From positions 56,455-120,454 of the forward strand of contig JBMYTV010000002.1 of the NCBI GenBank assembly GCA_049604715.1: a DNA stretch of 64,000 nt. Direction: 5' to 3'. The notes beneath the pieces are model-generated. The model was given only the letters and a program-made list of their open reading frames with translations, had not been told where the DNA came from and made no database searches. Origin of the DNA: Patescibacteria group bacterium (GTDB lineage Bacteria > Patescibacteriota > Patescibacteriia > S139-126 > S139-133). The position numbers and the translations under genes were made by a program. Of the stretch, positions 8,774 through 22,881 are shown piece after piece. Position 1 is the stretch's first letter. Every line of letters begins with the position of its first letter.

Positions 8774-9802
8774 ATGGACAATTTTTGGCAAAAACAAAAT
8801 AAACCTATTTTAGCACTGGCGCCTATGGCAGGTGTAACTGATATTGCCTTTCGGCAGATGTGTAAGCAATACGGTGCTGATGTGATTTATACTGAATTTG
8901 CATCTGCAGATGCGCTTATTTATGAATCACAAAAAACATTTGATATGATCCGATTCGCAGAAGAAGAGCGCCCTGTTGTTGTGCAAATTTTTGGCAACAA
9001 GCCAGAACATATGGGAAAAGCAGCTGCTATCTGCGAAGAACTCGGCTTTGATGGTATTGACATTAATTTTGGTTGTCCTGCTTATAAAGTTGTGAAACAC
9101 GGTGGTGGTGTCTCACTAATGCGTGAACCTGAGAGATGCCGTGAGCTTATTCAAGCAACTATTGAAGCTGTAAAAATTCCAGTATCTATAAAAATCCGCT
9201 CAAGTATATCTAGAGAGAGTAATGGTACAAAAAAGACAAAAAATAGTTTTGTCCCTGATGTGTCTGATCCTACTGACTGCGGCACAGAAACTGATCTTGA
9301 CTCTGTAACAGCTATTGAGTTTATTGAAGCGCTAAATGGGCTTGATATTGCAGCTATTATGATTCATGCCCGAAGCTATGAACGTCCATTTGATGGCTAC
9401 CCTGAAGTTGAGATTGTACAAAAACTTCGGAAAGTATACGACGGTATACTGATCCATAATGGTGGTATCTATACTCCAGAAGTTGCAAAAGAGCTTTTAG
9501 AAAAAACTGGTGCAGACGGTCTTGGCATTGCGCGCGGTGCTTGGGGTCAGCCATGGCTATTTCAGCAGATTAAAGAGTATTTAGAAACCGGTGAGTACTG
9601 GCAACCTTCTCACGACGAGATCATACCAATAATTTTAGAACATGCCCGGCGTGCCTTTGATCAAAAGGGAGAGCGCGGTGTCATAGAGCTACGTAAACAT
9701 TTGTCATGGTATATCAAAGGCTGGCCAGAAGCTAAAAAGATGAGAAACAAACTGATGCAAACCAAGTCATACGAAGAAGTAGAAAATATTCTCAAATATT
9801 AA
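8774..9802 (+). CDS. dus: tRNA-dihydrouridine synthase
   Basis: N-terminal LAPMAGVTD motif and the TIM-barrel Dus fold signature (IDINFGCP). It contains a roughly 35-aa low-complexity insertion. Confidence 0.85.
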   Translation: MDNFWQKQNKPILALAPMAGVTDIAFRQMCKQYGADVIYTEFASADALIYESQKTFDMIRFAEEERPVVVQIFGNKPEHMGKAAAICEELGFDGIDINFGCPAYKVVKHGGGVSLMREPERCRELIQATIEAVKIPVSIKIRSSISRESNGTKKTKNSFVPDVSDPTDCGTETDLDSVTAIEFIEALNGLDIAAIMIHARSYERPFDGYPEVEIVQKLRKVYDGILIHNGGIYTPEVAKELLEKTGADGLGIARGAWGQPWLFQQIKEYLETGEYWQPSHDEIIPIILEHARRAFDQKGERGVIELRKHLSWYIKGWPEAKKMRNKLMQTKSYEEVENILKY

Positions 9803-9825
9803 ACCGACGTATTTTACGTCGGTTT
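9801..9825. terminator. palindromic hairpin copy 1 (11-bp stem, 3-nt loop), overlaps the dus stop codon
   Basis: AAACCGACGTA-ttt-TACGTCGGTTT. The identical stem is repeated at 10410..10434. Confidence 0.6.
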
Positions 9826-10208
9826 TAATTCAATTGTTACCGCTTAACGCGGACACTACAAAATGGTACGAGGAAATAGTTATACCCCGCCTTACCGTTT
9901 GGCTTTCTGCGACGAACCAATGCCTTTGCACTTTTATCCCTTGGATCCGTCGCACCAAAGATCTGTTTACAGTTTCCTGAGTTCTTCATGACCTCAGTGC
10001 TGTGCCCGACAGCAAATTGACGCGTAGGGCTTTCGATTTAATAACACCAGATGTATTTGCTGGTGTGCCAGTTCTGGTTTTACAAAATACAGCATCAAGC
10101 CATTTTGCCGCGATCTTTCCTTAAAACAAAAGTCTTGCAAATCTTTGCGAACAGGAGTACACTTGGGGCGTCACCTACCTTAACATCCATGTATCAAAAG
10201 GGGGAAAT

Positions 10209-10400
10209 ATGAAAACCTTTGAATCCACTGTCTCGCTGTTAAAGAAAAAAGGAGTACGTGTGCGTTTTTATCCTGGCTACAAACCAATACCAGGAACATG
10301 TCGTCGTCCTACATCTGTATGTTCTAGGTGCCAATTTAAGCGCACTTGCCGGCGTAGCCCGCACTCCCGTGTTAATGTCCTTATCACAACCCAAAGGTAA
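10209..10400 (+). CDS. small Arg/Cys-rich protein (C-x6-C-x2-C-x6-C), hypothetical
   Basis: 63 aa. A strong Shine-Dalgarno (AAAAGGGGGAAAT) precedes the ATG, and the ORF is followed immediately by hairpin copy 2. The unusual composition means it could instead be the translation of a structured RNA. Confidence 0.3.
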   Translation: MKTFESTVSLLKKKGVRVRFYPGYKPIPGTCRRPTSVCSRCQFKRTCRRSPHSRVNVLITTQR

Positions 10401-10409
10401 AAAATCTTA

Positions 10410-10434
10410 AAACCGACGTAATTTACGTCGGTTT
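10410..10434. terminator. palindromic hairpin copy 2 (same 11-bp stem as 9801..9825)
   Basis: AAACCGACGTA-att-TACGTCGGTTT. It would terminate both the + strand small ORF and the - strand 55-aa ORF. Confidence 0.6.
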
Positions 10435-10438
10435 AAAC

Positions 10439-10606
10439 TTACATAAAACCTTTTGACTTTTTCGCACATGATGAAGCGCCACCATCACCACCACAATGCC
10501 TGCATACCAATCTTTTTTCCTTGGTAATACGAAATGAATGCTTTTTGTTAGGGCTTTTTAGACAATAGTCCGTAGAGATGGGTTTCAATTCTTTGTCCTT
10601 CTTCAT
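10439..10606 (-). CDS. unlisted 55-aa Cys-rich ORF downstream of dnaJ (possible zinc-ribbon mini-protein)
   Basis: Translated by hand as MKKDKELKPISTDYCLKSPNKKHSFRITKEKRLVCRHCGGDGGASSCAKKSKGFM. A weak AGGG Shine-Dalgarno lies 8 nt upstream. It is below the 60-aa cut-off of the ORF track. Confidence 0.25.
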   Translation of the reverse strand: MKKDKELKPISTDYCLKSPNKKHSFRITKEKRLVCRHCGGDGGASSCAKKSKGFM

Positions 10607-10700
10607 GGATATACCCTTTCAGAGTTTAGTTTTTATACGTTTTAAAATGATCAAACACAAAATCCATCATATTGATATCTGATGGACTTGTCAAGAAATA

Positions 10701-11792
10701 TTACAAACCTGCGTCTTGGAGTTTTTTAAGTAATTTCTTTTGTTCACTACTGAGCTTTTGCGGAACATCTACCTGAACTGTTACGATATGCTCCCCTCGC
10801 CTACTACTACCAAGCCGCATAGCACCTTTTTGCTTTAAACTAAACTGCTTACCTGACTTTGTGCCGGACGGGATTTTGAGAGTCACGTCCCCATCAACTG
10901 TCTCTACATCAATCTTGCCCCCAAGCACGCTTAAAGTAAAAGGAACCCGCTCTTCTGACATAATGACCTCACCATGCCGCTTGAACCTTGGATCTGGCTC
11001 AACATGTACATTTACATACAAATCACCTGCTTGCCCGCCCTGCTTGCCAGCATCACCAGCACCGCTCATACGGAGTCGATGACCACTTTCAATACCCCCT
11101 GGTACATCAAGTGTAATTTCTGATTCTTTTTGTTGAGTTCCACTTCCACTGCAAGTAGTACATTTGTCTTTGATTGTTTTACCGCTTCCACTACATGTTC
11201 CACATACTGTTTGGGTTTGAATAGCGCCTAAAAAAGTTTGGCGTACATGATTCACCTGTCCGCTACCACTACAAGTTGAACAACTTTCTGGGGTTGTGCC
11301 TTTTTTGGCACCACTTCCCTCGCAAGTCTCGCAACCTACTGATTTGCGCAGTGATATATCTCTCTTTACACCAAGCGCTGCATCTACAAATGAAATTGAA
11401 ATAGTCATCTCCAGGTCACGACCTCTATTTGCTTGTGCTTTTCGTCCTGACTGGCGACGAAAGCCACCAAAAAAATCTCCAAATATTTCATCAATATCGA
11501 CATCTGCAAAACCGCCACCACCCTGAAAACCACCAAATCCAGAAAAAGGATTACCTTGTGCACCACCACCAAAACCTGCCTGGTCAAATGTCTGCCCAAA
11601 CTGGTCATACTGTTGGCGCTTCTTCTCATCACTTAAGATTTGATAAGCTTCATTAATTTCCTTGAACTTCTCGTCGTTACCATCGTTTTTATCAGGATGA
11701 TGCTTGTGCGCAAGTGTTCGAAATGCTTTTTTGATCTCATCAGCTGAAGCTGACTTGTCAACGCCTAATATTTTGTAATAATCCTTTGCCAT
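10701..11792 (-). CDS. dnaJ: chaperone DnaJ
   Basis: J-domain (DYYKILGV...HPDKN), a Gly/Phe-rich linker and four CxxCxGxG zinc-finger repeats. Confidence 0.9.
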
Positions 11793-22108: not shown

Positions 22109-22881
22109 ACAATAGTTGCCAAAAATGCACCAACGCCATACGCAATTACTGCTGCAATACCACCAACAAAGAGCATTTCAAAACCTGCTCTAAACCAATG
22201 GTAATCAACCAAGCGAGTGCGTAGTGCTCCGACAGTAAATAGCGCAGCAAATGTCATACCAATAGACCACGAAAAGCCATTTTCCTGTATACCTGGAATA
22301 AAGTATGGTATGAGAGGTAAAAAGCCAGCAATAATAAACGATACCCATGTGACTATTCCATGACGAATTGGAGTAGAGTCGGTCTCTTCAATAACACCAA
22401 GTTCGTCCTTGAGCATAGTATCTACCCATACTTTTTTATCACTAGTAATAACCTCTACCACGCGATCTAGGTCTGGTCCAGTAAATCCTTTTTTTGCAAA
22501 AATTTCACGCACCTCTGCCTTTTCTTTTTCAGGCACATGCTCTATCTCCCAGAGTTCTTTTTTCTTAAGCTGTCTGATAAAACTTTCTTCTGATTTCTGA
22601 CCCAAATAATTTCCAAGCCCCATACTTGCTGCATCTGCCAAAAGACTAGCAACACCGAGCACAATCACAATATTGGCTGAGAGCTCAGCGCCAGCAATAC
22701 CTGCCACAACAGCAAATGTGGTTATAATACCGTCATTTGCAGCAAAAACAGCGTCAGCTAAATACTGACCCTTTTCTTGATTGTGCCAATCTACGACAAC
22801 ATCCGGATCTGCAGGATCCTTGCCATTTGCCTTGCGTTTCCATTCTTTTGCTAGTCGCCTTCTTTCTTCTGGTGTAAACAT
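22105..22881 (-). CDS. VIT1/CCC1-family (vacuolar iron transporter-like) membrane protein
   Basis: 258 aa with NDGIITTFAVVAGIAGA and LGVASLLADAASMGLGNYL motifs typical of the VIT family. Overlaps the murD stop by 4 nt. Confidence 0.65.
   Translation of the reverse strand: MFTPEERRRLAKEWKRKANGKDPADPDVVVDWHNQEKGQYLADAVFAANDGIITTFAVVAGIAGAELSANIVIVLGVASLLADAASMGLGNYLGQKSEESFIRQLKKKELWEIEHVPEKEKAEVREIFAKKGFTGPDLDRVVEVITSDKKVWVDTMLKDELGVIEETDSTPIRHGIVTWVSFIIAGFLPLIPYFIPGIQENGFSWSIGMTFAALFTVGALRTRLVDYHWFRAGFEMLFVGGIAAVIAYGVGAFLATIV

Follow-up and report, generated by a model that had tools for sequence, protein, structure and literature searches.

MITEs (miniature inverted-repeat transposable elements) and integron cassettes are both small units of DNA whose size range includes about 0.6 kb. 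The attC sites of integron cassettes measure 57-141 nt and are imperfect palindromes, with extrahelical bases and the core sites RYYYAAC and GTTRRRY, and it is the imperfection of these sites, as of the end hairpins of IS200/IS605 insertion sequences (IS), that lets the two strands be told apart. Repetitive extragenic palindromes (REPs) and the hairpins of IS200/IS605 elements are intergenic palindromes of 20-40 nt that are capable of acting as terminators, and in the IS200/IS605 elements such hairpins are found near both ends (PMC3333891). The locus described here lies in a 64-kb stretch of a Patescibacteria metagenome-assembled genome (MAG), hereafter the window, at the convergent junction where dusB (+ strand) faces the dnaK-DUF3467-dnaJ operon (- strand), and it consists of two copies of one perfect palindromic hairpin with a stretch of orphan DNA between them.

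The hairpin is duplicated, the enclosed segment is absent from the same junction in related genomes, it has no homologues and its composition is atypical. The account that we favour, with moderate confidence, is that the segment is orphan DNA, foreign or decayed, which lies between two copies of the junction terminator and has no demonstrable function. As matters stand, the segment would be a further orphan insert, confined to its lineage, in a variable junction between genes of a streamlined Patescibacteria genome, and is of little importance beyond that; it also illustrates that neat hairpins on both sides of a GC-rich gap are no sure sign of an RNA gene within it.

Twin hairpins and the DNA that they enclose

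The features of the locus, in window coordinates, are as follows (ORF, open reading frame; GC, guanine plus cytosine).

8774-9802, + strand: dusB, tRNA dihydrouridine synthase of 342 aa, from the ORF list, with a Pfam Dus match on the identical product; left synteny anchor
9801-9825: hairpin 1, 11-bp stem, loop TTT, about -14.3 kcal/mol predicted; the repeat extends over 9799-9828
9826-10208: stretch of 383 nt without a credible ORF, 44.1% GC, no Rfam match, no similarity found
9889-10030, + strand: predicted multi-branch fold, 9889-9899 pairing with 10019-10030; the sole folding signal, weak and with no covariation support
10209-10400, + strand: Arg-rich ORF of 63 aa (10 Arg, 4 Cys), preceded by AAAGGGGGAAAT
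10410-10434: hairpin 2, same 11-bp stem, loop ATT, about -14.8 kcal/mol predicted; the repeat extends over 10407-10437
10439-10606, - strand: ORF of 55 aa, codon score marginal, 4 nt between its stop codon and hairpin 2
10701-11792, - strand: dnaJ, last conserved gene of the dnaK-DUF3467-dnaJ operon; right synteny anchor

A preliminary description of this DNA had reported an 11-bp stem occurring twice, and this holds: the stem is found as AAACCGACGTA-TTT-TACGTCGGTTT at 9801-9825 and as AAACCGACGTA-ATT-TACGTCGGTTT at 10410-10434, enclosing 584 nt (9826-10409; about 585 bp had been given). The stems contain 5 G-C pairs, and their folding energy is predicted at -14.3 to -14.9 kcal/mol. As the arms are palindromic themselves, the repeat can be read in both orientations, extending over 28 nt as a direct repeat and over 30 nt as an inverted one, with 93% similarity either way. 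The 25-nt palindrome has exactly two matches in the 64 kb with up to 3 mismatches allowed, and none in 100 dinucleotide shuffles, and the window holds 11 perfect hairpins whose stem is 9 bp or longer, of which the nine besides these two are all unrelated to it in sequence. The 8-mers of the hairpin arms have no further occurrence in the 64-kb window, and on this ground a DNA-uptake sequence was rejected. No copy of the hairpin was found in about 5 kb of additional sequence from this genome and no exact match in viral contigs; the suggestion that it might be a generic REP-like terminator is not supported, given the lack of further copies in the roughly 70 kb of this genome that were sampled.

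Judged from their sequence, both hairpins would qualify as intrinsic terminators, each being a stable G+C-containing stem-loop with a U-run and with a gene end directly upstream. Hairpin 1, which overlaps the TAA stop codon of dusB (9800-9802), is followed on the + strand by UUUU-AAUU, and hairpin 2 by UUUU-AAGA-UUUUUU on the - strand and by UUU only on the + strand; a generic terminator scan detected hairpin 2 on the - strand. The hairpins lie 0 and 4 nt from the adjacent stop codons, and each copy has its U4 run on the same strand as the gene beside it. Hairpin 1 is thus placed where it would stop dusB transcription, and hairpin 2 where it would stop transcripts arriving from the dnaJ side. 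The pair is mirror-symmetric, each hairpin presenting its better U-tract to its own flanking gene, and therefore incoming transcripts would be stopped and the interior would be largely untranscribed. Both hairpins are accordingly taken as putative working terminators, with the DNA between them probably shielded from transcription from either side.

The composition of the enclosed DNA bears out what had been said of it, namely that it is GC-elevated and that its first part is poor in ORFs. Its GC content is 44.0%, as compared with 39.4% for the window, 39.7% for coding and 34.6% for intergenic sequence, which places it at the 97th percentile among all 584-nt windows, and the value falls to 34.6% immediately outside hairpin 2. 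The first 383 nt hold no ORF above 53 aa, the interval 9803-10700 is the window's longest gap without a long ORF, and the gene caller of the Logan assembly placed no gene between dusB and dnaJ. When the segment was compared with the rest of the window by blastn and tblastx, only chance-level matches were returned, and a decayed tandem duplicate of the flanking DNA was rejected for this reason. The interior matched nothing in phage records or in viral contigs, and in plasmid records only a 26-nt chance match was obtained (E = 0.6).

Palindromes can mislead assemblers, and a short palindromic repeat might in principle give rise to a chimeric join with such a layout. The Logan contig of SRR27204692 and the NCBI MAG are identical in sequence across 12.2 kb, and although the two may share reads, they come from two different assembly pipelines. 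Moreover, the two hairpins share no more than 13-14 nt of exact sequence to either side of the differing loop, assembly k-mer sizes being far larger than this, and the loops differ between the copies, as those of two real loci would. An assembly artefact is therefore regarded as extremely improbable.

The same junction in related genomes

Relatives were taken to be contigs carrying a DusB homologue of 65-80% identity, and seven were compared (L002, L016, L017, L018, L019, L020 and L021). In six of the seven, dusB converges on dnaJ-DUF3467-dnaK; the seventh, L018, is a short contig on which only a partial unannotated gene converges on dusB. The junctions contain the following.

L016: 50 bp
L019: 217 bp with a promoter-like site of its own and a tiny ORF
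L002: Cys-rich ORF of 100 aa
L017: gene of 352 aa and an 87-aa homologue of the L002 Cys-rich ORF
L018: partial gene
L020 and L021: NTP_transferase gene of 426 aa

The 584-nt segment is absent from all seven relatives and from every other locus that was retrieved, and neither blastn nor tblastx returned any similarity to 9803-10700 in any of the seven. Since the cargo of the junction differs from one relative to another and the segment is missing from all of them, it is best read as a lineage-specific gain, that is, an insertion, and the dusB/dnaJ junction appears to be a recurrent insertion spot for differing cargo in this clade. In all five of the junctions that were read (L002, L016, L017, L018 and L019), one hairpin of unrelated sequence follows dusB, and the AAACCGACGTA hairpin was not found in the relatives checked (L002-L018). 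In L017 a second, different terminator follows the cargo gene; the two terminators of this relative differ in sequence, and the idea that twin hairpins are a habit of the family was rejected on that account. The twin arrangement thus appears to be peculiar to the present genome.

The history that we propose would begin from the state seen in relatives, in which dusB is normally followed at once by an intrinsic terminator of the bidirectional kind. Orphan DNA of about 610 bp, foreign or decayed, would then have entered the junction, and the terminator hairpin would now stand once on each side. The duplication would have arisen when the segment inserted at or into the single ancestral terminator, and the two hairpins would stop both incoming transcripts and insulate the interior. 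Possible routes to the duplication are the integration of a small circular DNA with the same palindrome, a staggered duplication of an unusually long target, and recombination or template switching at the palindrome.

Several neighbouring features of the junction were also recorded. To the right of hairpin 2 the order on the - strand is the 55-aa ORF, dnaJ, the DUF3467 gene and dnaK. Directly 3' of dnaJ, L002 (3291-3593, - strand) and L017 (3411-3674, - strand) encode a conserved protein of 87-100 aa with two CxxC...CxxC clusters, for which no Pfam family was matched. This small Cys-rich protein may survive in truncated form as the 55-aa ORF, the comparison between them giving a BLASTP E value of 0.03 at 24% identity. 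Between the dnaJ stop codon and the 55-aa ORF there is a promoter-like TTGACA-17-TATGAT (10666-10694, - strand, 11 of 12 matches), which would drive transcription of the 55-aa ORF toward hairpin 2. In the junction of L019, at 1990-2130, TTGACA-17-TATAAT stands ahead of AGGAGG and of an ORF of about 25 codons that starts with GTG, a further tiny lineage-specific unit.

Directly upstream of dusB, three of the relatives carry a gene for an Xer-like tyrosine recombinase (Phage_integrase with an N-terminal SAM-like domain), at these positions.

L002: 1350-2222
L017: 301-996
L019: 131-946

At the same position in the window there is no tyrosine recombinase gene, and small unannotated ORFs are found there instead. 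About 7 kb from the locus, at 289-2835 on the - strand, the window encodes an 848-aa protein with coupling-protein domains of the TraG/VirD4 type (DUF87, TrwB_AAD_bind and T4SS-DNA_transf), and no further conjugation or integration genes were noted near it among the precomputed Pfam marks.

Coding and RNA potential of the segment

The 63-aa Arg-rich ORF that had been described in the second part of the segment is present at 10209-10400 on the + strand, with a different cysteine spacing from the one reported: the cysteines stand at positions 31, 38, 41 and 47, giving C-x6-C-x2-C-x5-C and not C-x6-C-x2-C-x6-C. The GGGGG run 4 nt before its ATG, which had been called a very strong Shine-Dalgarno (SD) sequence, does exist, but that label carries little weight in this genome. 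Only about 7 of the 62 long ORFs of the window have an SD-like run (GGAG or GGGA), and many have a TATAAT or TATACT box that ends about 6 nt before the ATG, for example those starting at 22881, 43007, 44311, 47871 and 58847, which suggests that leaderless mRNAs may be widespread here. With few SD-led genes and such leaderless-like starts, the GGGGG run is no strong argument for translation.

Database searches gave little that would speak for a gene. The 63-aa product has no exact record and no gene is called there in the public assembly, a word-indexed search of 5.8 billion proteins returned no homologue, none was found in viral contigs, and no family was matched in Pfam, NCBIfam or PHROG. An exhaustive phmmer search of 1.84 billion representative proteins gave one match, with E = 4e-4, to a 598-aa repeat protein; its E value is summed over four repeats of a C...CxxC motif, and the match was judged compositional and rejected as a homologue. 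Scored for codon usage by log-odds, with 46 long genes of the window as the training set, the ORF obtains -0.20 per codon, which is below all 253 63-codon windows of real genes (mean +0.33) and in the middle of the range of spurious ORFs (mean -0.17), and an ATG-initiated ORF of at least 63 aa arises in 30% of Markov resamples of the segment. The ORF is most likely no functional gene of the host; it has probably arisen by chance, and could at the most be an orphan gene of very recent origin.

The proposal of a small zinc-finger regulator is not supported by these results, there being no credible homologue, no match to Pfam, NCBIfam or PHROG, codons atypical of the host and a length compatible with chance. 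As regards a zinc ribbon or zinc finger in particular, the product has a single CxxC and matches no family profile, and to our knowledge the C-x6-C-x2-C-x5-C spacing is no recognised pattern of either kind.

A genuine orphan small protein of horizontal origin, perhaps one that binds nucleic acid or metal, would be translated from an SD-led mRNA ending at hairpin 2, and this reading nevertheless has some points in its favour. The ORF is intact, with 9 nt between its end and hairpin 2, its AAAGGGGGAAAT-ATG start has counterparts with GGAGG or GGGA runs in a minority of host genes, it has four cysteines including one CxxC, and a weak promoter-like TTGCAA-17-TACACT lies at 10137-10165 (8 of 12 matches, below the scan threshold). 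Against these points stand the empty searches, with only the compositional match mentioned above, a codon score under that of every real host gene window, a chance of about 30% for an ORF of such length, the silence of the gene caller, the bare UUU that follows hairpin 2 on the + strand, and a cysteine spacing unlike those of known zinc ribbons and fingers, so that a genuine small protein is considered unlikely. The frame of the ORF has few stop codons when followed back to hairpin 1, and the internal ones are one TGA and one TAA, which means that uniform recoding does not explain them. A pseudogene of a known family was also rejected, the 188-aa conceptual product being unmatched in Pfam, PHROGs, NCBIfam, the 5.8-billion collection and phage genomes.

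The possibility that the segment is a structured non-coding RNA locus had been raised as well, with RNase P RNA, 6S RNA and transfer-messenger RNA (tmRNA) as candidates. Rfam searches at the gathering score found no family in the entire 64-kb window, and at E up to 10 the intervals 9700-10700 and 9826-10215 returned only junk matches, with terminator-containing small-RNA models falling on the hairpins themselves; ARAGORN reported neither tRNA nor tmRNA in the window. The 383-nt stretch showed little or no gain in folding over shuffled sequences, with z = -0.90 (+ strand) and -0.94 (- strand). The preliminary description had itself held that no Rfam match together with no conservation in related genomes would argue against an RNA, and by that measure the non-coding RNA is unsupported; the absence of the segment from seven syntenic relatives further means that it holds no essential RNA.

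A young, lineage-specific structured small RNA encoded in the GC-rich 383 nt, especially in 9889-10082, is a different matter, for which some evidence can be named. The stretch is the only long non-coding one of above-average GC in a compact genome. A sliding-window fold scan showed a moderately stable region at about 9876-10075, with local values around -2, and the interval 9870-10085 folds somewhat better than shuffles (z = -2.2 on the + strand, -1.9 on the - strand). A terminator-like stem with a U-run is found at 10042-10082, 3' of the multi-branch fold, and the lowest value of the scan was z = -4.1, in one 150-nt window on the - strand. These local values were, however, selected from about 76 overlapping windows and were judged non-significant after correction, the whole-segment z is near -0.9 on both strands, no Rfam match was obtained even at E up to 10, a scan for promoter-like sites found none on the + strand within the segment, and the segment is conserved in none of the seven syntenic relatives. 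A small RNA of this kind is therefore thought very unlikely.

With these alternatives set out, the reading of the segment as orphan DNA between duplicated terminators has to be weighed against a number of points that tell against it. The insert is known from one genome, represented by two identical assemblies that probably derive from the same reads, and a loss in the relatives could stand in place of a gain here, which would be less parsimonious. Ordinary transposition duplications are much shorter than the 25-30-nt palindrome. A structured RNA, too, would be expected to show as a non-coding stretch of raised GC in a compact, AT-rich genome, and the somewhat better-than-shuffled folding of 9870-10085 points the same way. 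Finally, the G-run before the 63-aa ORF resembles that of a minority of host genes, and the frame of this ORF contains only 3 stops in the 194 codons back to hairpin 1, a value reached in 7% of resamples.

Comparison with known mobile elements and terminators

The segment had also been proposed to be a miniature inserted element with terminator-like ends, and this was borne out in one part: it is an insertion with respect to all syntenic relatives and is bounded by repeated hairpins, but neither a second copy nor a target-site duplication was found, nor any transposase remnant or family to which it could be assigned. A non-autonomous mobile unit, with the palindrome as its ends or its recombination site, might take the form of a MITE-like element with 30-nt terminal inverted repeats, of an IS200/IS605-type palindrome-associated element, or of a small-circle cassette recombining at the hairpin. 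Such a unit would agree with the insertion relative to seven syntenic relatives, with a repeat that bounds the segment exactly and a GC shift at the hairpin boundary, and with a size of about 0.6 kb, which fits the range of MITEs and integron cassettes; a transposase that has decayed might account for the frame with few stops. It is, on the other hand, without a second copy in about 70 kb of the same genome, in the relatives' loci or in phage, plasmid and viral collections, and there is no short target-site duplication, no transposase or integrase signal and no recombinase gene nearby. The palindrome, furthermore, is perfect over 25 nt, unlike attC sites or IS200/IS605 end hairpins, which are imperfect. 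We consider a mobile unit improbable on balance.

The likeness to a MITE lies in a short, non-coding, intergenic insert with 30-nt inverted repeats of 93% similarity and in ends that may form terminator-like hairpins, the terminal arms 9799-9828 and 10407-10436 being 93% complementary as terminal inverted repeats. The segment differs from a MITE in being single-copy in the sampled DNA, with no dispersed copies, in having no target-site duplication (the flanks read ...CAAATA / TTAAACCG and CGGTTTAA / ACTTAC) and in that each end is itself a perfect palindrome. A parent IS or a transposase remnant is also undetectable, no transposase or integrase signal having been obtained from Pfam, PHROG or NCBIfam in any conceptual translation of the segment.

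Like the REPs and the bacterial interspersed mosaic elements (BIMEs), the locus has an intergenic palindromic hairpin of the terminator type. REPs are, however, highly repeated and imperfect, while the present hairpin is perfect and has two copies in about 70 kb, both of them at this locus within the 64 kb of the window; BIMEs pair their palindromes across short linkers, as opposed to the 584 nt found here. No Y1 transposase (RAYT/TnpA) is among the precomputed Pfam marks near the locus, the whole genome not having been scanned. IS200/IS605 elements resemble the segment in having a hairpin at each end and differ from it in that the palindromes here are perfect and have no sibling copies in about 70 kb.

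The resemblance to an integron cassette is one of layout, with a unit of about 0.6 kb, a promoterless small ORF immediately ahead of a palindromic site that recurs at the other end, an arrangement that would follow from a small circle integrating at the hairpin site. As compared with attC, the site here is a perfect palindrome of 25-30 nt, and TTAAAAC and GTTTAAA fall outside the core consensus; compared with an integron, there is neither an array nor an integrase nearby. An element of the dif/Xer type was rejected, there being no GC-skew turn in the window and the junction hairpins of the relatives being unrelated. A narrower proposal is that the hairpin and the 584 nt together make up a small mobile cassette of candidate-phyla-radiation bacteria that recombines at a terminator-like perfect palindrome, and this is held to be more doubtful than a mobile unit in general. 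A circle of about 610 nt would here have been acted on by a hairpin-recognising recombinase, leaving the terminator on both sides. If this were true, it would be an undescribed type of cassette or of MITE with palindromic ends; no element of such form was found described in the literature searched. Mobile elements are poorly catalogued in these reduced genomes, and if more hairpin-bounded copies existed, terminator palindromes would be insertion or recombination sites for small cassettes in them.

The hairpins themselves can also be compared with bidirectional Rho-independent terminators between convergent genes. They share with these a perfect stem, in which a G+C-rich core lies between an A-run and a T-run, and a location directly at the stop codons of convergent genes, and the junctions read in the relatives hold one such hairpin at the same place. 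What sets the present locus apart from an ordinary bidirectional terminator is that the same hairpin stands here twice, 609 bp apart and as mirror images, with unrelated DNA between the two copies.

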